NCBI RefSeq assembly: GCF_002854065.1
Contig: NZ_CP024147.1
DNA from: Escherichia coli
Lineage (GTDB): Bacteria > Pseudomonadota > Gammaproteobacteria > Enterobacterales > Enterobacteriaceae
Strand: one strand, 5' to 3'
Length of the DNA stretch: 64,000 bases
The notes beneath the pieces were generated by a model. The model was not told where the DNA came from, made no database searches, and was given only the letters and a program-made list of their open reading frames with translations. The position numbers were made by a program, and so were the translations under genes. Position 1 is the stretch's first letter; every line of letters begins with the position of its first letter. Positions 21,444-48,165 of this stretch are shown piece by piece.

Positions 21444-23333
21444 TTACGCATCACCACCGAAACGACGACGACCGGTAGAGTCATCACGACGCGGAGCGCG
21501 GCCTTCACGACGTTCGCCGCTAAAACGACGACCATCACCACGACCACCTTCACGGCGTTCACCGCTGAAGTTACGACCACCTTCACGACGCTCGCCACTG
21601 AAACCACGACCACCGCCACGACGCTCTCCGCCAGTATGCGGCTGTGCATCGCCCAGTAATTGCATATTCATCGGCTTGTTCAGAATGCGAGTACGTGTAA
21701 AGTGTTGCAGCACTTCACCCGGCATACCTTTCGGCAGTTCGATGGTGGAGTGAGAAGCAAACAGCTTAATGTTACCGATGTAACGGCTGCTGATGTCGCC
21801 TTCGTTAGCAATCGCACCAACGATATGACGAACTTCAACACCATCATCGCGGCCCACTTCAATACGGTACAACTGCATATCGCCAACATCACGACGTTCA
21901 CGACGCGGACGATCTTCACGGTCGCCACGCGGACCACGGTCGTTACGATCGCGCGGACCACGGTCATCACGGTCACGGAATTCACGTTTCGGACGCATCG
22001 GCGCATCTGGCGGTACGATCAGAGTACGTTCACCCTGTGCCATTTTCAGCAGTGCCGCAGCCAGAGTTTCGAGATCCAGCTCTTCACCTTCTGCAGTCGG
22101 CTGAATTTTGCTCAGCAGTGCGCGGTATTGATCCAGATCGCTGCTTTCCAGCTGCTGCTGTACTTTAGCGGCGAATTTTTCCAGACGGCGTTTGCCCAGC
22201 AGTTCTGCGTTCGGCAGTTCTACTTCCGGAATAGTCAGCTTCATAGTACGTTCAATGTTGCGCAGCAGACGACGCTCGCGGTTCTCAACGAACAACAGCG
22301 CGCGGCCAGCACGACCCGCACGACCGGTACGACCGATACGGTGAACGTAAGACTCAGAATCCATCGGGATATCGTAGTTAACCACCAGGCTGATACGCTC
22401 AACGTCCAGGCCACGGGCTGCAACGTCGGTCGCAATCAGGATGTCCAGACGACCATCTTTCAGGCGTTCCAGTGTCTGCTCACGCAGCGCCTGGTTCATG
22501 TCACCGTTCAGCGCGGCGCTGTTGTAGCCGTTACGCTCAAGAGCTTCAGCCACTTCCAGAGTCGCATTTTTGGTACGAACGAAGATAATCGCCGCATCAA
22601 AATCTTCCGCTTCCAGGAAACGTACCAGTGCTTCGTTTTTACGCATACCCCAGACAGTCCAGTAGCTCTGGCTGATGTCAGGACGGGTAGTCACGCTGGA
22701 CTGAATGCGCACTTCCTGCGGCTCTTTCATAAAGCGGCGGGTAATGCGACGAATCGCTTCCGGCATGGTTGCAGAGAACAGAGCGGTCTGATGACCTTCC
22801 GGGATCTGCGCCATAATAGTTTCAACGTCTTCGATGAAGCCCATGCGCAGCATTTCGTCAGCTTCATCCAGAACCAGACCGCTCAGTTTAGAGAGGTCCA
22901 GAGTGCCACGTTTCAGGTGGTCCAGCAGACGGCCCGGAGTACCGACAACGATCTGCGGCCCCTGACGCAGGGCGCGTAATTGCACGTCATAACGCTGGCC
23001 GCCGTACAGGGCAACCACATTTACGCCGCGCATGTGTTTAGAGAAATCCGTCATTGCTTCAGCAACCTGTACCGCCAGTTCGCGGGTCGGTGCCAGCACC
23101 AGAATCTGTGGTGCTTTCAGCTCAGGATCAAGATTTTGCAGCAGAGGTAAAGAGAATGCTGCAGTTTTTCCGCTCCCCGTCTGGGCCATACCCAGAACGT
23201 CGCGGCCATTCAGCAGATGTGGAATACACTCTGCCTGAATTGGAGATGGTTTTTCGTAACCCAGATCGTTAAGGGCTTCAAGGATAGGAGCCTTCAGGCC
23301 CAGATCTGCAAAAGTGGTTTCGAATTCAGCCAT
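21444..23333 (-). CDS. deaD: ATP-dependent DEAD-box RNA helicase DeaD/CsdA
   Basis: ATG at 23333 ([13 protein letters not shown]...) gives 629 aa; DEAD-box motifs ([12 protein letters not shown]); Arg/Gly-rich repetitive C-terminal tail. Confidence 0.93.
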
Positions 23334-23512
23334 GTAGTACGTGTGCCTCAAAATTAATGGCGGCCAGTCTACATAACTCATCATGAAATTGATCAGCAAT
23401 TTTCATTGAAAAGTGTGAACCGGCTCAAAGTAGGTGTATTAACGAACAACAACGCCCTCACCCGTTAAGGTGATGGCAATCAAAAAAGATTACGGGCTGA
23501 TGTGTACGTCAG

Positions 23513-24397
23513 CTATTGCTGGTCCGATTCTGCCAGGTCATCTTGGTCCTGGCCCAGGAGCGATAATTCCAACAATGCGTATCGGTGCTCAACAAAGTTA
23601 TGAACGTTGTTGGCAACCGCCAGTTTGAACAGTGCCGTGGCGCTGTCCAAATCCCCCAGACTTAGGTAGTACTTACCTAAATAGAAGTTGGTTTCACTGA
23701 GATGCTCAGCGAGCGAGGTGTTATCCGTTGCGTCCGCCTTGAGCCTTTCCATTAACGTTTGTTCGCTAATGTTGCCCAGGTAGAACTCGACAATGTTCCA
23801 TCCCCACTGTTCCTTATCCGATTTTTCGAAGTGCTGTTTCAACACTTCTTTAGCCTGCTTCTCATCGAGCTTCTGCTCGGCGAGATAAAGCCACAGACTA
23901 CGGAAAGGATCATTGGGATCGTCTTGATAAAACGCCAGCAGATCATCTTGCGCTAACTTGTCACGACCGCCGTAATATAATGCGATCCCGCGATTCAAGT
24001 GCGCGTAGTTGTAAGTTGGATCAAGCTCAAGTACAGAATCAAACGCTTCATAGGCAGCATCAAAATTGCCTGCCTGCGTTAAATATATGCCTAAGTAATT
24101 GAATACTTCAGGCATATCCGGTCGGATTGCCAGCGCTTGCGAAAAATCGTTACGCGCTAATGCCCTCAGACCGAGACTATCATACAACACTCCGCGCTCA
24201 TATAAAAGCTGTGCGCGTTCGTCATCGGTTAAAGCCCGACTGGCAAGGATTTGTTCCATACGTGCCAGAATCACTTCCTGCTGTAAAGTCGGTTGCAATG
24301 GTACCGCGAGGACTTCACTTTTACGCCAGGAAGTATTACTGCATCCTGCAAGCGTAAGTGCTGTCGCAACGAAACACCAGCGCAAAAAAGGCTTCAT
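23513..24397 (-). CDS. nlpI: TPR-repeat lipoprotein NlpI
   Basis: ORF 294 aa with lipobox LTLAGCS and TPR repeats. Confidence 0.93.
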
Positions 24398-24505
24398 TTC
24401 CCACTCCCGAAGACCACGGTTGAATGAACGTCCTGTTCCCGGTTGCTAACAAGGCGTCCTGCCCGGTTAAAAGCCCCCCGCCGCAGCGGAGGGCAAATGG
24501 CAACC

Positions 24506-26641
24506 TTACTCGCCCTGTTCAGCAGCCGGAGCTTCCGGTGCTGCAGCAGGTTGAGACTGCTCAGTCGCTTCTTTAATGCTCAGACGGATACGGCCCTGGC
24601 GATCAACTTCCAGAACTTTCACCGGTACTTCCTGACCCATCTGCAGGTAATCGGTCACTTTCTCAACGCGTTTGTCAGCGATTTGAGAGATGTGTACCAA
24701 ACCTTCTTTACCGCCGCCGATGGCAACAAATGCGCCAAAGTCAACGATACGGGTCACTTTACCATTGTAGACGCGGCCCACTTCGATTTCTGCAGTGATC
24801 TCTTCGATACGACGAATAGCGTGTTTCGCTTTCTCGCCGTCGGTCGCTGCGATCTTCACAGTACCGTCATCTTCGATTTCGATGGTGGTGCCGGTTTCTT
24901 CGGTCAGGGCACGGATAACAGAGCCGCCTTTACCGATAACATCTTTGATCTTGTCCGGGTTGATCTTGATGGTATGGATACGCGGTGCGAACTCAGAGAT
25001 ATCGCCACGCGGCGCGTTGATCGCCTGTTCCATTACACCCAGGATGTGCAGACGCGCACCTTTAGCCTGGTTCAGTGCAACCTGCATGATCTCTTTGGTG
25101 ATACCTTCAATTTTGATATCCATCTGCAATGCAGAGATACCGTCGCGGGAACCCGCAACTTTGAAGTCCATATCGCCCAGGTGATCTTCGTCGCCCAAAA
25201 TGTCAGACAGTACAACGTAGTTGTCGCCTTCTTTCACCAGACCCATTGCGATACCCGCAACGGCAGCTTTGATCGGCACACCTGCGTCCATCAGCGCCAG
25301 AGACGCGCCGCACACGGAAGCCATAGAAGAGGAACCGTTGGATTCAGTGATTTCAGACACAACACGTACGGTGTACGGGAATTTGTCCATATCTGGCATG
25401 ACTGCCAGCACACCGCGCTTCGCCAGACGACCGTGACCAATTTCACGACGCTTCGGAGAACCGACCATGCCGGTTTCGCCTACGGAGTACGGAGGGAAGT
25501 TGTAGTGGAACAGGAAGGTGTCGGTACGTTCGCCCATCAGTTCATCAAGAACCTGTGCGTCACGAGCGGTACCCAGCGTTGCAGTAACCAGTGCCTGCGT
25601 TTCACCACGGGTGAACAGCGCAGAACCGTGAGTACGCGGCAGCACGCCAGTACGCACATCCAGACCACGGATCATATCTTTTTCACGACCGTCGATACGC
25701 GGTTCGCCTGCCAGTACGCGGCTACGAACAACGTTTTTCTCGATCGCGTGCAGAATCTCACCCAGTTCGTTTTCGTCCAGGGTTTCGTCTTCAGCAAGCA
25801 GCGTTGCGATGGTTTCAGATTTGATGACATCAACCTGCGCATAACGCTCTTGTTTGTCGGTGATGCGATAAGCATCGCTCAGACGAGCTTCAGCCAGTGC
25901 AGCAACGCGCGCGTTCAGCGCTTCGTTTACCGGCTCCGGCTGCCAGTCCCAACGCGGTTTACCGGCTTCTTTCACCAGTTCATTGATGTTCTGAATAACA
26001 ACCTGCTGTTGTTCATGACCGAACACTACTGCGCCCAGCATCTGGTCTTCGCTCAGCAGTTCAGCTTCAGATTCAACCATCAGTACAGCGGCTTCAGTAC
26101 CCGCAACAACCAGATCCAGTTTGCTCTCTTTCAGCTCGTCCTGAGTCGGGTTCAGTACGTACTGGTCATTGATGTAACCTACGCGGGCAGCACCAATCGG
26201 ACCATTGAACGGAATACCAGACAGAGACAGTGCTGCGGAAGCACCAATCATCGCGACGATATCCGGGTTAACTTGCGGGTTAACAGAAACCACGGTGGCG
26301 ATAACCTGAACTTCGTTGACGAAGCCTTCCGGGAACAGCGGGCGAATCGGGCGGTCAATCAGACGCGCGATCAGGGTTTCGCCTTCGCTTGGGCGGCCTT
26401 CACGACGGAAGAAGCTACCCGGGATACGACCAGCAGCGTAGGTACGCTCCTGATAGTTAACGGTCAGTGGGAAGAAATCCTGACCTGGTTTGGCTTTTTT
26501 CTGGCCAACAACGGTAACAAATACCGCGGTGTCATCCATGCTAACCATAACAGCGGCAGTAGCCTGACGAGCCATCATGCCGGTTTCCAGAGTCACGGTG
26601 TGTTGGCCGTACTGGAATTTACGAACGATCGGATTAAGCAA
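24506..26641 (-). CDS. pnp: polynucleotide phosphorylase (PNPase)
   Basis: ORF-track 740 aa trimmed to the TTG start at 26641 ([21 protein letters not shown]...) giving 711 aa; C-terminal KH/S1 domains. Confidence 0.93.
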
Positions 26642-26843
26642 TGTAATATCCTTTCTCTTTCTTAGACAGTACCTTACGGCACTGGTGTTAATACCCGATC
26701 TTCTGCGCATCCTCGCGACTAATGACAACCCTAACCCAGCCCAATGTGGGTAAAGCCTCTCATTAGCCGCGCGAACCTCTGCAACGGAAGATCATTCATA
26801 GCAACAATACATTAGTTTCCAGTGAATTGCTGCCGTCAGCTTG
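26642..26843 (-). promoter_or_regulatory. pnp 5' leader (autoregulatory, RNase III-processed region in E. coli)
   Basis: ~200-nt untranslated leader between the rpsO terminator and the pnp start; role assigned from established knowledge of the rpsO-pnp operon, not from a structure calculation. Confidence 0.5.
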
Positions 26844-26872
26844 AAAAAAGGGGCCACTCAGGCCCCCTTTTC
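26844..26872 (-). terminator. rpsO intrinsic terminator
   Basis: aaaaaaggggccactcaggcccccttttc: GC-rich hairpin flanked by A/T runs directly after the rpsO stop. Confidence 0.75.
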
Positions 26873-26887
26873 TGAAACTCGCAAGAA

Positions 26888-27253
<366 letters not shown>

Positions 27254-27305
27254 TTAAGCGGCAGTATTCTACTCGTAGCGACCTGTTATCGCAAGACGGT
27301 TAACA

Positions 27306-28250
27306 TTACGCCGGGTATTCAACCACCAGACGACGAGGCGCAACGCGGCCTTCATCGTCAATTTCGCCCATACCGATAAACTTGCCGTTCTCACCTTCCG
27401 TAACGCGAACCAGTCCTTCCAGCGGCGCGCCAGATGTACGAACCGGGTTACCATTTTTGAAGTAAACAGAAGACATTAACGGAAGATTCACCACCGTGTA
27501 GTCCGAAGCTGGACTGTCCATTGGCATCAGTAATGGATCAAGTAACTCCGCAGCCGGAATATCCTGCTGTTCGGCTTGTTCGACCAGTTCACGCAGATGT
27601 TCCAGGGTCACCATCCGTTCAACCGGATATTTACTTACCGCCAGACGACGCAGGTAAATAACATGCGCGCCACAACCGAGTTTTTCACCCAGGTCATCAA
27701 TGATGGTGCGGATATAAGTGCCTTTTGAGCAGTGAATTTCCAGCTCCAACTCATTGCCTTCATGGCGAATAAACAGCAATTCATAAACGGTAATTGGACG
27801 CGCTTCACGCGGAACTTCAATGCCCTGACGCGCATATTCGTACAGTTTTTTGCCCTGGTATTTCAGTGCTGAATACATCGATGGGATCTGTTCGATATCG
27901 CCACGGAAAGTATCCAGTGCCGCCGCCAGTTGTTCTGCACTAAAGGTTACCGGACGCTCTTCAACGATTTGTCCGTCGGCGTCAGAAGTATCGGTACGCT
28001 GTCCAAGACGCGCAATAACCCGATAGCGTTTGTCGGAGTCCAGCAGATACTGGGAAAACTTCGTCGCTTCCCCGAGGCAAATCGGCAACATGCCGGTCGC
28101 CAGCGGGTCCAGCGCACCGGTATGCCCGGCACGGTTGGCGTTATAAATCCGTTTCACTTTTTGCAGCGCATCGTTGCTGGACATACCCTGAGGTTTATCC
28201 AGCAACAAAACGCCGTTAATGTCGCGACCGCGACGACGAGGACGACTCAT
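27306..28250 (-). CDS. truB: tRNA pseudouridine(55) synthase
   Basis: ORF 314 aa matching TruB. Confidence 0.95.
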
Positions 28251-28651
28251 TAGTCCTCCTTGCTGTCGTCCGGGTTAACACGACGTTCTTCGTCATGTTT
28301 GACCACGCTGGTCACCAGGTTTGACATGCGCATCCCTTCAACCAGAGAGTTGTCGTAGAAGAAGGTCAGTTCCGGCACGATACGCAGGCGCATCGCTTTC
28401 CCCAGCAGGCTGCGGATGAAACCAGAAGCTTCTTGCAACGCTTTGATGCCCGCTTTAACCGCGTCTTCATCTTTGTCGTTGAGGAACGTCACATATACTT
28501 TGGCATACGCCAGGTCGCGAGACATTTCGACACCGGAAACGGTGGTCATCATGCCCAAGCGAGGATCTTTAATTTCACGCTGCAGGATGAGAGCGATCTC
28601 TTTTTGCATTTCCTGCGCTACGCGCTGCGGGCGACCAAATTCTTTCGCCAT
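28250..28651 (-). CDS. rbfA: ribosome-binding factor A
   Basis: ATG at 28651 ([11 protein letters not shown]...), 133 aa. Confidence 0.93.
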
Positions 28652-28668
28652 AATAAATTCTCCTGACA

Positions 28669-28697
28669 AAAAAGGGGCTGTTAGCCCCTTTTTAAAA
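28669..28697. terminator. hairpin with flanking A/T runs between infB and rbfA (possible attenuator/terminator)
   Basis: aaaaaggggctgttagcccctttttaaaa: perfect 7-bp GC-rich stem, 4-nt loop, T-run on both strands. Confidence 0.45.
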
Positions 28698-28729
28698 TTA
28701 ATTTCAGGTGGAAGGGCTGTTCACGTTGG

Positions 28730-28802
28730 CCTGATAAGACGCGCCAGCGTCACATCAGGCAATCCATGCCGGATGCGACGTAAACGCCTTATCCCGCATG
28801 GA
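28730..28802. repeat. REP/BIME palindromic units
   Basis: gcctgataagacgcgccagcgtcacatcaggc and gccggatgcgacgtaaacgccttatcccgcatgg. Confidence 0.65.
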
Positions 28803-28814
28803 ACCCTAAAAACC

Positions 28815-31487
28815 TTAAGCGATGGTACGTTGGATCTCGATGATTTCGAATACTTCGATCACATCGCCAGTGCGGACGTCGTTGTAGTTCTTAACGCCGA
28901 TACCACATTCCATACCGTTACGGACTTCGTTAACGTCATCTTTGAAGCGGCGCAGGGACTCCAGCTCGCCTTCATAGATAACCACGTTGTCACGCAGAAC
29001 GCGGATCGGGTTGTGACGTTTAACCACACCTTCGGTAACCATACAGCCTGCGATGGCACCAAATTTCGGCGATTTGAACACGTCACGAACTTCCGCCAGA
29101 CCGATAATCTGCTGTTTCAGTTCCGGAGACAGCATACCGCTCATCGCCGCTTTCACTTCGTCAATCAGGTTATAGATGACGGAGTAGTAACGCAGATCCA
29201 GGCTTTCCGCTTCAATCACTTTACGTGCAGAGGCATCAGCACGTACGTTAAAGCCAACCAGGATGGCGTTGGACGCCGCAGCCAGGGTGGCGTCGGTTTC
29301 GGTGATACCACCTACGCCAGAACCGATGATCTTCACTTTAACTTCGTCAGTAGACAGTTTCAGCAAGGAGTCGGAGATCGCTTCGACAGAACCCTGTACG
29401 TCTGCCTTGAGGACGATATTCACTTCGTGAACTTCGCCTTCGGTCATGTTGGCGAACATGTTCTCGAGTTTAGATTTCTGCTGACGCGCCAGTTTAACTT
29501 CGCGGAATTTACCCTGACGATAGAGTGCAACTTCACGCGCTTTCTTCTCGTCACGTACAACGGTAACTTCATCACCCGCAGCCGGAACACCGGACAAGCC
29601 GAGGATTTCCACCGGAATGGACGGACCCGCTTCCAGCACTTCCTGACCCAGTTCGTTACGCATCGCACGAACACGACCGTATTCGAAGCCACACAGAACG
29701 ATATCGCCCTTGTGCAGAGTACCTTCACGTACCAGAACGGTAGCAACCGGACCACGACCTTTATCGAGGAAGGATTCGATAACCGCACCGCTCGCCATAC
29801 CTTTACGTACCGCTTTCAGCTCCAGAACTTCCGCCTGCAGCAGGATAGCGTCCAGCAGTTCATCGATACCGGTACCCGCTTTCGCAGATACGTGTACGAA
29901 CTGGCTTTCACCGCCCCACTCTTCCGGCAGGATGCCGTACTGGGAGAGTTCGTTCTTAACGCGATCCGGATCGGCTTCTGGTTTATCGATCTTGTTCACT
30001 GCAACCACCACCGGTACCTGCGCCGCTTTCGCGTGCTGGATTGCTTCGATGGTCTGCGGCATTACGCCGTCGTCGGCAGCAACAACCAGGACTACGATGT
30101 CAGTTGCCTGCGCACCACGTGCACGCATTGAAGTAAACGCGGCGTGCCCCGGGGTGTCCAGGAAGGTGATCATGCCGTTTTCAGTTTCAACGTGGTATGC
30201 ACCAATGTGCTGGGTAATGCCGCCCGCTTCGCCAGAGGCCACTTTCGTTGAGCGAATGTAGTCCAGCAGAGAGGTTTTACCGTGGTCAACGTGACCCATG
30301 ATGGTCACAACCGGCGCGCGCGGTTCAGCCGCAGCACCCGTGTCACGGTCGCTCATTACCGCCTCTTCCAGCTCGTTTTCACGACGCAGGATAACTTTGT
30401 GGCCCATCTCTTCAGCAACCAGCTGTGCGGTTTCCTGATCGATAACCTGGTTGATGGTTGCCATTGCGCCCAGTTTCATCATCGCTTTGATGACCTGAGA
30501 GCCTTTAACCGCCATCTTGTTCGCCAGTTCGCCAACGGTGATAGTTTCGCCGATCACAACGTCACGGTTAACGGCCTGAGCAGGCTTCTGGAAGCCTTGC
30601 TGCAGCGAAGAACCTTTACGTTTTCCGCCCTTACCGCCACGTACTGCTGCGCGTGCTTCTTCACGATCAGCTTTTGATTCAGCGTGTTTGTTGCCTTTCT
30701 TCGGACGCGCTGCTTTCGCGTTACGACCACGGCCACGGCCGCCTTCGACTTCACGATCGCTTTCGTCTTCTGCCTGGCGAGCATGTTGAGAAGTAGTGAC
30801 GTGATAATCGCTGGAATCTTCAGTCGGTTCCGCGTTATCAGTCCATTTGTTTTCTTCCGCCATACGACGTGCTTCTTCAGCAACGCGACGTGCTTCTTCT
30901 TCGAGTTTACGACGCGCTTCTTCTTCGGCTTTACGCTTGAGCTCTGCAGCTTCCTGCTCACGGCGGGCTTTTTCAGCCTGGGCGTTTTTAGTCATATCGT
31001 CTTGTTGATTGCTCACTTTGTCTTTTTCCGCAGCTTCACGTTTCGCTTGTTCAGCAGCTTCACGCTTAGCTTGTTCTGCGGCCTCACGTTCAGCTTTTTG
31101 TTGCGCCTCGCGTTTAGCCGATTCTTCTGCCTCACGACGGGCTTGCTCTTCCGCTTCACGCTGCGCTTGCTCTTCCGCTGCAAGGCGTTCAGCCTCTTGC
31201 GGATCGCGTTTCACAAAGGTGCGTTTCTTGCGGACTTCGATTTGTACCGATTTGCTTTTTCCACCGGTACCAGGAATGTTAAGGGTGCTGCGTGTTTTAC
31301 GTTGCAGCGTCAATTTGTCCGGGCCTGAATTTTTCTGATTCAGGTGGTCAATCAAAGTCTGTTTCTCTTGTGCAGACACAGAGTCGTCAGCAGACTTCCG
31401 GATACCTGCATCAGCAAATTGCTGTACCAGGCGTTCCACGGAGGTCTGTCGCTCTGCGGCCAGCGTTTTAATCGTTACATCTGTCAT
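28815..31487 (-). CDS. infB: translation initiation factor IF-2
   Basis: ORF 890 aa; GTP-binding motifs (GHVDHGKT); repetitive acidic/basic N-terminal domain. Confidence 0.95.
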
Positions 31488-31511
31488 GCTGTTCCTTCCT
31501 GCTACAGTTTA

Positions 31512-32999
<1,488 letters not shown>

Positions 33000-33026
33000 C
33001 GCGGGCTTTTCACCTCATCCAGACTA

Positions 33027-33479
33027 TTAAAAGTGGGGAACCAGGTTCGCCTTCTGGATATTACTCAGCGCGAACACTTCATCTTTACCTTCGACGGTAA
33101 CTGTGATCATTTCACCGTCTACCGCTTTGATAACGCCCTGCCATTTACGACGGTTTTGTACCGCCATACGGAGAACCAGAGTCACCTCTTCTCCGACAAA
33201 ACGGGCGTAGTGTTCAGCCGTGAACAGTGGGCGATCGAGACCCGGTGAGGAGACTTCCAGGTTATAAGCAACGGTGATGGGATCTTCAACATCCAGCACA
33301 GCACTTACCTGGTGGCTCACATCAGCACAATCATCAACATTGATGCCATCTTCACTATCAATATAGATGCGCAGTGTGGATGTGCGACCGCGAATAAATT
33401 CGATGCCAACCAGTTCAAAACCCAGGGCCTCAACTGGCGCAGTAATCATCTCTGTTAATTTTTGCTCTAATGTGGACAA
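33027..33479 (-). CDS. rimP: ribosome maturation factor RimP
   Basis: ORF-track 33027..33491; three in-frame non-AUG starts (TTG 33491, GTG 33485, TTG 33479); TTG at 33479 gives the 150-aa RimP ([11 protein letters not shown]...). Confidence 0.85.
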
Positions 33480-33540
33480 GCCCACCCCCAAGACATAAAA
33501 AAAGGGCCTAAAGCCCAGTTATTCTGTAGTCAGATAACAA

Positions 33541-33565
33541 AAAACCCCGATAAATCGGGGCTTTA
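33541..33565 (-). terminator. intrinsic terminator/attenuator between metY and rimP
   Basis: On the minus strand: agccccgatttatcggggtttt, a stem-loop followed by a U-run. Confidence 0.6.
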
Positions 33566-33685
33566 TATAACTGAACCCTATAACCGCAACTGCGGTCTGG
33601 AGCACTTTCCAGAAGGATTTTTTCAAATCCCACTACGAAGGCCGAAGTCTTCACAGTATATTTGAAAAAGAACTCTAAGGGAAAG

Positions 33686-33762
<77 letters not shown>

Positions 33763-34019
33763 CCTGAAACGTGGCAAATTCTACTCGTTTTGGGTAAAAA
33801 ATGCAAATACTGCTGGGATTTGGTGTACCGAGACGGGACGTAAAATCTGCAGGCATTATAGTGATCCATGCCACATTTTGTCAACGTTTATTGCTAATCA
33901 CGTGAATGAATATCCAGTTCACTTTCATTTGTTGAATACTTTTGCCTTCTCCTGCTCTCCCTTAAGCGCATTATTTTACAAAAAACACACTAAACTCTTC
34001 CTGTCTCCGATAAAAGATG

Positions 34020-34068
34020 ATTAAATGAAAACTCATTTATTTTGCATAAAAATTCAGTGAGAGCGGAA
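34020..34068 (+). promoter_or_regulatory. candidate ARG boxes (ArgR operator) upstream of argG
   Basis: aatgaaaactcatttatt and tttgcataaaaattcagt resemble the ARG-box consensus TNTGAATWWWWATTCANW; argG is ArgR-regulated. Confidence 0.4.
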
Positions 34069-34094
34069 ATCCAGGCTCATCATCAGTTAATTAA

Positions 34095-35453
<1,359 letters not shown>

Positions 35454-35460
35454 TTCGACA

Positions 35461-37086
35461 TCAACCCTGCCCTTCAGGGGTGGGGTTACCTTGCTTATCC
35501 TCTGTAAACTCCTTTCTGAGCATCACATAATCGAAAACATCATGGTTTGCATCCACAACCCGTGAGTCTCCTTTATAGTGTGCAATCACTTCCTCAAGCG
35601 TTTGCGGCTGTTCCGGCTTTGTTACCCCCATCCACGCATTAATAAGGTAATTATTGTAAGCTGTAGAAAAGATGTTGTTTTCCGTTGTGCGATCCACACC
35701 ATCCCCAAGAACGGGGCTATACCAGATAAACATCGGAACATGATATGCCTGCTGGCTGGCCTCCCTGCCTCCATGAAAATAGACGTTCTTCTTCGTAGGG
35801 TCACGTTCCAGGCCGTGGTCGGCAAAATACATGACCGAGGCGCGGCGATCTTTTAATAATTCAAAAACCTGACCTAGCAAACTATCTGTGTAATGAATGG
35901 AGTTGTCATAGCAGGCATCCTGATCGTCCTGCGGTTGAAACACGGCGCTGGATTGCGGATAGGCGCTACAAGCCGGTTCATGGCTTCCATTTAAATGAAG
36001 AACAATCAGTTTCTTTTGCTGTGTATTTTGCTGTAATGCTTGCGATAAATGCGGCAACAACAATTCATCAAATCCTCTGACATAAACTGTTTCCATGGCG
36101 CGCATGGCGATACTGGTAACTGCTGTACCATTCTGCCGAAAAGCGGATTGCGAACTTAGCCAGAAAGTCTGAAATCCTGCTTGATTAGCCATATTAATAA
36201 TGTTGTCGGGGTAATTATGAATGTCATGGCTCAAAACAGAATCAGCAGTTAAAGAAAGGGGAACCGACAGCGCAGTGTAAGGTGCACCGCTTATTGCTTG
36301 ATTAAACAGTTTGATCTGTTTTCTTTGTGCTTCGATTTGCGGTGTCGTAGAGCGTGTATATCCATACAAAGACATATTGTCGACACGTACAGACTCCCCC
36401 ACAATCAACACGTAGGTATCAATACCTGTATCCCTGACTGATAATTGAAAATACGGCACTGTGTTTGCAATTGAGAGTAATCTTTGATGCTCTTTCGCTG
36501 CTAAAGCAAAATAATTGAGATTGAAAAACGGCGTATAGGTAGCAAATCGCGACGCTAGTATATATGGACTGAACGCATTTTTATTTTTGGCATCTTTATA
36601 AGCAAATTGACAAGCGGAAAATAAACTTCCCGAAATGACAATCAGCAATAATATTCCTGTCACTTTTTTTGTCGGCAAGGAAACATCATATTTTATTATT
36701 ACAGCCAAAAAAAGAAGGGATAAAAAGGCAAAAGCACATAGATAAGGGCTATACATTCCCAGCATTTTGACAACTTCATCCGGATCACTCTGCAGCACAC
36801 TAATCGCAAATCCATCATTGAAAGTTGTACCAAAGGTACACCATGAATAGAGGCTAATACTCATGTCTGCCGCAGTCAGTAACACAAATGGTGCGGCAAC
36901 AAGCAGGCGAAGCGGAAGGGATGATATACGTTTAACAACCAGGATGGTCAGAACGAAGAACAGCAATCGCTGAACCATATGCGCTCCGGAAGAGGCGACT
37001 AAGTTCGTAATACCAAAAACAATAACACTAAGATACAACAACCAATGAGATTTAAAACTTCTAGCAAATTTGTTGAATACTGTCAT
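35461..37086 (-). CDS. yhbX: sulfatase-domain phosphoethanolamine transferase family protein YhbX
   Basis: ATG at 37086 (MTVFNKFARSF...) gives 541 aa; N-terminal membrane segments plus sulfatase domain. Confidence 0.9.
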   Translation of the reverse strand: MTVFNKFARSFKSHWLLYLSVIVFGITNLVASSGAHMVQRLLFFVLTILVVKRISSLPLRLLVAAPFVLLTAADMSISLYSWCTFGTTFNDGFAISVLQSDPDEVVKMLGMYSPYLCAFAFLSLLFLAVIIKYDVSLPTKKVTGILLLIVISGSLFSACQFAYKDAKNKNAFSPYILASRFATYTPFFNLNYFALAAKEHQRLLSIANTVPYFQLSVRDTGIDTYVLIVGESVRVDNMSLYGYTRSTTPQIEAQRKQIKLFNQAISGAPYTALSVPLSLTADSVLSHDIHNYPDNIINMANQAGFQTFWLSSQSAFRQNGTAVTSIAMRAMETVYVRGFDELLLPHLSQALQQNTQQKKLIVLHLNGSHEPACSAYPQSSAVFQPQDDQDACYDNSIHYTDSLLGQVFELLKDRRASVMYFADHGLERDPTKKNVYFHGGREASQQAYHVPMFIWYSPVLGDGVDRTTENNIFSTAYNNYLINAWMGVTKPEQPQTLEEVIAHYKGDSRVVDANHDVFDYVMLRKEFTEDKQGNPTPEGQG

Positions 37087-40410: not shown

Positions 40411-40443
40411 AGAAAAAACCCCGGAGCACGCCCCGGGGTTTTC
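40411..40443 (-). terminator. intrinsic terminator downstream of ftsH
   Basis: On the minus strand: aaaaccccggggcgtgctccggggtttttt. Confidence 0.65.
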
Positions 40444-43644: not shown

Positions 43645-43668
43645 AAAAGGCCGCATAGCGGCCTTTTT
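43645..43668. terminator. bidirectional intrinsic terminator between convergent yhbY and greA
   Basis: aaaaggccgcatagcggccttttt: perfect 8-bp stem flanked by A-run and T-run. Confidence 0.65.
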
Positions 43669-48134: not shown

Positions 48135-48165
48135 AAAAGCCCCGCAACGTGTTGCGGGGCTTTCA
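48135..48165 (-). terminator. intrinsic terminator downstream of rpmA
   Basis: aaaaagccccgcaacgtgttgcggggctttc. Confidence 0.7.

Follow-up and report, generated by a model that had tools for sequence, protein, structure and literature searches.

[quoted passage not shown] As the published t3, the element is already known, having been described decades ago and revisited in 2019. A terminator of this name was placed "just upstream of rbfA" by Brandi et al. (2019, NAR, PMC6511841, citing Plumbridge & Springer 1983), whose northern blots contained an RNA of about 4.8 kb ending at t3 together with a read-through RNA of about 6.7 kb. In the same study (PMC6511841), mRNA levels followed the order nusA > infB > rimP > rbfA, with infB at about twice the level of rbfA. 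The sequence, predicted fold, rarity and conservation of the hairpin were computed here, while the two RNA species, terminated and read-through, and the ratio between the mRNAs come from the literature.

The window, meaning the whole 64,000-nucleotide stretch of DNA that was analysed, is a segment of E. coli chromosome with the gene order nlpI-pnp-rpsO-truB-rbfA-infB-nusA-rimP-metY, all on the minus strand. The homologous map of K-12 reads nlpI-pnp-sraG-rpsO-truB-rbfA-infB-nusA-rimP-metY, in which sraG alone lies on the opposite strand and all the other genes lie on the equivalent of the window's minus strand. A 261-nt query over the hairpin region found matches in 5425 of 5426 complete E. coli genomes, with infB and rbfA annotated there. 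The infB-rbfA spacer of the window is 163 nt long, and the features in and around it are listed in Table 1. No promoter-like sites were found in this spacer on either strand, and an Rfam search of window positions 23000-36000 (E<=1) gave no family at the hairpin; the matches nearby were to the BIME (naRNA4), the S15 leader, the rimP leader, SraG and the tRNA metY. In the mechanical list of open reading frames, rbfA begins at TTG 28669 (139 aa), within the U run of the terminator. The start of rbfA is instead ATG 28651, which is annotated, conserved and preceded by a proper AGGAG Shine-Dalgarno (SD) sequence; the K-12 annotation places the start at the homologous ATG, and GUCUGGAGAAUUUAUUAUG in the initiation region is nearly invariant between genera.

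Table 1. Features of the infB-rbfA spacer and of related elements in the window.
Feature	Coordinates	Strand	Composition, basis or remark
Terminator-like hairpin with U run	28668..28693	-	Sequence read directly; RNAfold; strict terminator pattern
A tract	28693-28689	-	
Hairpin 5' arm	28688-28683	-	GGGGCU
Hairpin loop	28682-28680	-	AAC
Hairpin 3' arm	28679-28674	-	AGCCCC
U run	28673-28668	-	U6
Speculative candidate anti-terminator	28712..28718	-	AGCCCUU; could pair with terminator 5' arm; -8.3 kcal/mol in local prefix fold
REP pair, inverted (BIME)	28728..28798	- (both strands noted)	Rfam naRNA4 RF02564, 71.9 bits on minus, above gathering score
infB (IF2) CDS	28815..31487	-	Last gene upstream of hairpin; stop UAA 28817-28815; ORF list and K-12 annotation
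rbfA CDS, 133 aa	28250..28651	-	First gene downstream of hairpin; K-12 annotation; Pfam PF02033 on homologues
rbfA translation-initiation region	28649..28667	-	GUC; SD AGGAG 28664-28660; spacer AAUUUAUU; ATG 28651-28649
rpsO terminator	26850-26866	- (+ also fits pattern)	GGGGCC-UGAGU-GGCCCC-U6; at 3' end of Rfam SraG match 26700-26871
rimP-leader hairpin, first	33560-33545 (region 33541-33564)	-	CCCCGA/UCGGGG; t1/t2 region, within RF01770
rimP-leader hairpin, second	33516-33498	-	GGGC-UUUAG-GCCC-U7; second of t1/t2 region, just upstream of rimP

On the plus strand, positions 28669-28697 read aaaaaggggctgttagcccctttttaaaa, exactly the sequence quoted in a preliminary description of this DNA, which had located a hairpin there with its U run on the operon (minus) strand. 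Read along the operon strand from 28693 to 28668, the element is AAAAA GGGGCU AAC AGCCCC UUUUUU, followed by GUC and the AGGAG of rbfA, and the K-12 hairpin is identical in sequence. RNAfold gave -9.5 kcal/mol for the 6-bp core (five G-C pairs, one U-A pair and a 3-nt loop), -11.1 kcal/mol for the core with one flanking A-U pair (7 bp), and -14.8 to -15.2 kcal/mol for the 11-bp stem obtained when the A5 and U5 flanks pair as well (z = -3.7 relative to shuffles). The perfect 7-bp GC-rich stem of the preliminary description therefore holds if one A-U pair is counted with the 6-bp core, but its 4-nt loop is impossible because the centre of the palindrome is odd; the loop has 3 nt, or 5 nt with the U-A pair open. 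The position next to rbfA also stands, with 16 nt between the U run and the ATG, the 17 given earlier having been counted from 28669. Two marks of an intrinsic terminator, a G/C-rich stem-loop on the transcribed strand and an immediate 3' U run, are present. The predicted stem is short, the U run next to it is perfect and the A tract can extend the stem, a build that fits an intrinsic terminator of moderate strength. The hairpin lies about 125 nt beyond the infB stop codon, and therefore terminating ribosomes cannot melt it. When the whole spacer was folded, a short helix enclosed the two REP hairpins, and the terminator hairpin followed separately (-75.2 kcal/mol, z = -5.5).

The distances in the window run from the rimP-leader region (~33600) to the U run of the hairpin (28668), about 4.9 kb, and to the rpsO terminator (~26845), about 6.75 kb, and therefore fit the published bands of 4.8 and 6.7 kb. 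In addition, the 163-nt spacer contains no stem followed by a U run other than this hairpin. From these transcript lengths, and from the wording "just upstream of rbfA", we infer that t3 and the hairpin match at the nucleotide level. The core energy is modest next to the -19.3 kcal/mol of the rpsO terminator with its flanks, which fits leaky termination. The earlier suggestion of a partial terminator inside the nusA-infB-rbfA-truB transcription unit is thus supported by the published t3, its two RNAs and the infB to rbfA ratio. Its alternative term, attenuator, taken to mean regulated read-through, is only partly backed, Csp antitermination being reported yet disputed. A terminator or attenuator upstream of rbfA had also been predicted independently across Enterobacteria by Naville & Gautheret (2010, PMC2965389), who attributed it to BIMEs.

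Published data sets were consulted for transcript ends at this locus. The curated Term-seq tables of Adams et al. (2021, PMC7815308), which cover three conditions, contain no 3' ends at K-12 3313xxx, a silence that carries little weight because the same tables also miss the classical rpsO terminator. Their table of Rho regions has no entry between K-12 3307737 and 3318065, which is consistent with Rho independence, although it is not a test of it. The SMRT-Cappable-seq supplements (Yan 2018) make no mention of infB and rbfA.

For the release mechanism and the 3' protection, we infer the following sequence of events. RNA polymerase on the minus strand would pass infB, and the GGGGCU/AGCCCC hairpin would form in the exit channel at the time when the weak rU:dA hybrid of the U6 run lies in the active site, whereupon a fraction of the polymerases would release the transcript. 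The released rimP-nusA-infB mRNAs would end in a 3' hairpin, which would also shield them from 3' exonucleases, and the remaining polymerases would read through rbfA and truB to the rpsO terminator. The rbfA/truB mRNA would in this way be set below the infB mRNA, roughly two-fold.

A generic terminator scan did not list the hairpin and was therefore replaced by a strict pattern and shuffled controls; in our reading, the miss is a tool artefact, in which maximal extension of the stem consumes the U run, and is not counter-evidence. The strict pattern required a perfect 6-bp stem with at least five G-C pairs, a loop of 3-8 nt and at least five T in the next 6 nt. It was fitted by eight strand-sites in the 64-kb window, compared with 0.24 +/- 0.48 expected from 200 dinucleotide-preserving shuffles. 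The infB-rbfA hairpin fits it on both strands, and the other sites that could be placed were known terminators, namely those of rpsO and the rimP leader. The pattern was also fitted at 43649-43663 (both strands), 40419-40438 (minus) and 48140-48159 (minus); one of these sites, GGCCGC-AUA-GCGGCC, has U runs on both strands. The motif AAGGGGC-N5-GCCCCTTTT had no second occurrence in the window.

One scan of species-representative genomes with RbfA supplied 80 Enterobacteriaceae loci, or 81 sequences including the window. GGGGC-(4 to 6 nt)-GCCCC with a U-rich tail was present 4-11 nt upstream of the rbfA SD in all 80 of the other loci (81/81 sequences), and this position before the SD was kept in infB-rbfA spacers ranging from 57 to 289 nt. 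The five core pairs were invariant and the loop was free, the arms, loops and tails together occurring in 58 distinct combinations. Two pairs outside the core switched jointly from A-U (63 and 68 of 81) to G-C (18 and 12 of 81), and the core was directly followed by 5-6 U in 63 of the 81 sequences, with interrupted tracts in the rest. In a core-anchored alignment, the seven innermost pairs were standard in 60/60 distinct sequences; this alignment was anchored on the central GC/GC and thus fitted to the structure, and controls with slid partners paired at 68-78% versus 90%. The controls pair well because the arms are homopolymer-like, and the evidence for covariation is therefore not the percentage paired but the specific double-sided changes, which occurred at three pairs, A-U to G-C at two of them and G-C to A-U in Pantoea and Tatumella. 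When the 60 distinct hairpins were aligned with MAFFT, the arms were displaced and the loop was left without gaps, and this alignment was dropped for pair counts.

In Erwinia, Pantoea and Tatumella (Erwiniaceae), the strong hairpin was kept beside an interrupted U tract, and the same was observed in Cedecea, Atlantibacter and Buttiauxella; interrupted tracts among all these taxa include CCGUUUUGUCU and CCCGAAUUAUUUG, and the interrupted tails still have at least five U in an 8-nt window. Retention of the hairpin where the U tract is interrupted suggests that termination may not be its sole selected function. Six more distant RbfA loci were available, and a GC-rich hairpin followed infB in three of them (L090, L092 and L093); no such hairpin was found in the other three, which are a 759-kb reduced genome (L089), a locus with a 9-nt spacer (L094) and one with an AT-rich 205-nt spacer (L095). 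One further locus, L088 (representative P0125, 71% identity), adds nothing, since from the hairpin to the ATG it does not differ from the Klebsiella pneumoniae locus L006.

At a number of loci (L010, L012, L018, L040, L052, L053, L066 and L069-L080), the A tract and the first U's were replaced by G's and C's. The taxa concerned include Klebsiella grimontii, Klebsiella spallanzanii and Klebsiella indica, as well as Atlantibacter, Shimwellia, Cedecea and Buttiauxella. These loci have a longer stem, with 6-7 G-C pairs, next to an interrupted U tract (CCGUUUUGUCU, CCGAUUUGUCU, CUUAUUUGUCU); to judge from the sequences, stem strength seems to have been gained at the expense of the U tract.

Within E. 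coli, the hairpin was invariant or varied in the loop only in 5424 of 5426 complete genomes, and the 72-nt hairpin region was at least 99% identical in 4388 of 5425. Among aligned variant alleles, differences within the hairpin were confined to the loop (TAACA, TTATG, TATG), leaving the stem intact. The intact infB-rbfA junction was missing in at most 3 of 5425 genomes. In strain 22AH104 (NZ_AP043972.1, ~614470-615790), an IS4-family element, whose transposase CDS measures 1188 nt, has landed exactly within the hairpin (L082 760-800 and L087 1540-1600; homologous to window positions 28674-28688). The sequence GGGCTATGGCCC stands at both IS junctions and looks like a target duplication; towards infB a truncated hairpin copy is left, and the copy that adjoins rbfA has the U run.

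The element may also be a regulated attenuator and not a fixed leak, its read-through being modulated by CspA/C/E in the cold, by autoregulation through NusA, or by alternative pairing in cis. We consider this unlikely, although it deserves some weight, and it would add to the terminator explanation without excluding a terminator. PMC9765468 and PMC12562117 cite Bae et al. (2000) for a report of Csp antitermination in the metY-rpsO operon, with raised expression of nusA and rbfA. However, Brandi et al. (2019, PMC6511841) observed no new read-through species after cold shock and rejected Csp antitermination as the cause of induction, and in the literature nusA and rbfA were not raised by overproduction of CspD. 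Operon transcripts do increase in mutants with less NusA-dependent termination (Brandi et al. 2019, PMC6511841), and the infB-rbfA hairpin resembles one in the rimP leader, GGGC-N5-GCCC-U7, in its short all-G/C build. On the other hand, no sensor or ligand element was found, nor any Rfam match at the hairpin.

For pairing in cis, terminators and possible anti-terminators have been drawn for the BIME-linked element upstream of rbfA (Naville & Gautheret 2010, PMC2965389), and the spacer of the window contains the candidate segment AGCCCUU, which might base-pair with the terminator's 5' arm unless held by AGGGUU (28807-28802), at 8-13 nt downstream of the infB stop codon. Ribosomes that finish translating infB could in that case tip the balance towards the anti-terminator. 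In prefix folds, the alternative helix has 7 bp and -8.3 kcal/mol, compared with -9.7 kcal/mol when the terminator core forms within that local sequence. However, the segment occurs only in Escherichia and a few neighbouring genera, the 5' arm was unpaired in local prefix folds of 40 of 79 loci, and in whole-spacer folds the terminator always forms while AGCCCUU pairs with AGGGUU. In place of the conserved and mutually exclusive anti-terminator expected of an attenuator, we thus found a pairing that is absent in about half of the loci and out-competed when the whole spacer is folded. The predicted anti-terminator pairing appears lineage-restricted and energetically marginal, and its probability is low.

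A wider proposal, which we regard as quite doubtful, is that the hairpin responds to NusA or Csp proteins, or is a dual element for termination and mRNA stability, and that read-through in Escherichia possibly depends on infB translation. It draws on the invariant core in at least 80 species with a drifting loop, on survival of the hairpin beside interrupted U tracts and on the architecture resembling that of the rimP leader. If true, the supply of RbfA and TruB would be coupled to the condition of the machinery for transcription and translation.

That the hairpin is mainly a determinant of RNA stability or processing, with termination incidental, seems improbable. Such an element might cap the 3' end of infB mRNA against PNPase/RNase II, guard the 5' side of rbfA-truB after endonucleolytic cleavage, or insulate the rbfA ribosome-binding site. 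Hairpins with compensatory changes do persist beside interrupted U tracts, as in Pantoea and Tatumella (GGGAGGCC...GGCCUCCC followed by GAAUUAUUUG) and Erwinia (...CCCCCC followed by UCUUUGUCU), likewise in Cedecea and Atlantibacter. The distant gammaproteobacterial loci L092 and L093 also combine a GC hairpin with a poor U tract, and the hairpin's constant distance of 4-11 nt from the SD hints at a connection with the region where rbfA translation starts. However, a core directly followed by 5-6 U, as in most of the Enterobacteriaceae sequences, is a feature specific to termination, and even the interrupted tails remain U-rich; a discrete RNA ending at t3 has been published (PMC6511841); and the SD is not sequestered by the hairpin in the predicted centroid structure.

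It is very improbable that the hairpin, as a bidirectional terminator, was selected for keeping antisense (plus-strand) transcription on the rbfA/truB side from running into infB. The plus strand, AAAAAA-GGGGCU-GUU-AGCCCC-UUUUU, does fold at -15.7 kcal/mol and fits the strict pattern, but there is no plus-strand gene or promoter-like site between the SraG terminator (26850-26866) and the hairpin, the plus-strand T run is only 5 nt long before AAAA, and in many genera stem-extending G's replace the A tract, so that the symmetry is lost.

The BIME, about 35 nt upstream of the hairpin, folds as two hairpins. It differs from one E. coli lineage to another, and other genera have a different one or none while the terminator hairpin stays; it is a separate, lineage-variable element and not part of the terminator. 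Chance, or membership of a REP/BIME repeat, has next to no probability as the origin of the hairpin despite the nearby BIME and the grouping of the rbfA element with BIME-derived attenuators (Naville & Gautheret 2010, PMC2965389): a chance palindrome is ruled out by the eight strand-sites against 0.24 expected per window, together with conservation, and a REP-derived hairpin by the end of the Rfam BIME match at 28728, the uniqueness of the motif in the window and its persistence in 57-62-nt spacers without a BIME, and neither a family match nor multiple copies were found, the median number of places for the 72-nt region being 1 in E. coli genomes.

As a leaky terminator, the element would set the ratio of IF2 and NusA to the ribosome-maturation factor RbfA and the tRNA pseudouridine synthase TruB. 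This role is known in one of the best-studied operons of E. coli, and its confirmation adds no new biology. The comparative additions are modest: the hairpin is the constant core of a fluid spacer throughout Enterobacteriaceae, its stem shows compensatory change, and related hairpins are present in Erwiniaceae and in some more distant Gammaproteobacteria.

Compared with t3 of the E. coli metY-nusA-infB operon, the hairpin shares organism, operon, position and partial termination, with no known difference. With the BIME/REP-based attenuators of Naville & Gautheret (2010, Fig. 8: gatY, rbfA and cvpA), it shares the spacer, in which a REP pair is present, but the REP match does not reach the hairpin, which is single-copy and also conserved where the BIME is lacking, indicating that it is not repeat-derived. 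The t1/t2 terminators of the rimP leader, which are thought to be sites of NusA autoregulation, resemble it in being operon-internal or leader intrinsic terminators with short all-G/C stems and long U runs, and the second of them also in its 5-nt loop. In contrast to the hairpin, they sit in a 5' leader and not between genes, and homology does not extend beyond the generic G/C stem and U run; Rfam RF01770 (rimP leader) matches 33497-33597 only and not the infB-rbfA hairpin (cmscan E<=1, 23000-36000). The rpsO terminator looks like a terminator shared in both directions with the antisense SraG RNA. Like the infB-rbfA hairpin, the leaky rpsO terminator between rpsO and pnp combines a GC-rich stem-loop with a U run and a preceding A tract, and it is placed between co-transcribed genes, so that part of the transcription stops there and part continues; the rpsO hairpin, however, is longer and more stable (-19.3 versus -14.8 kcal/mol with flanks) and also ends SraG.
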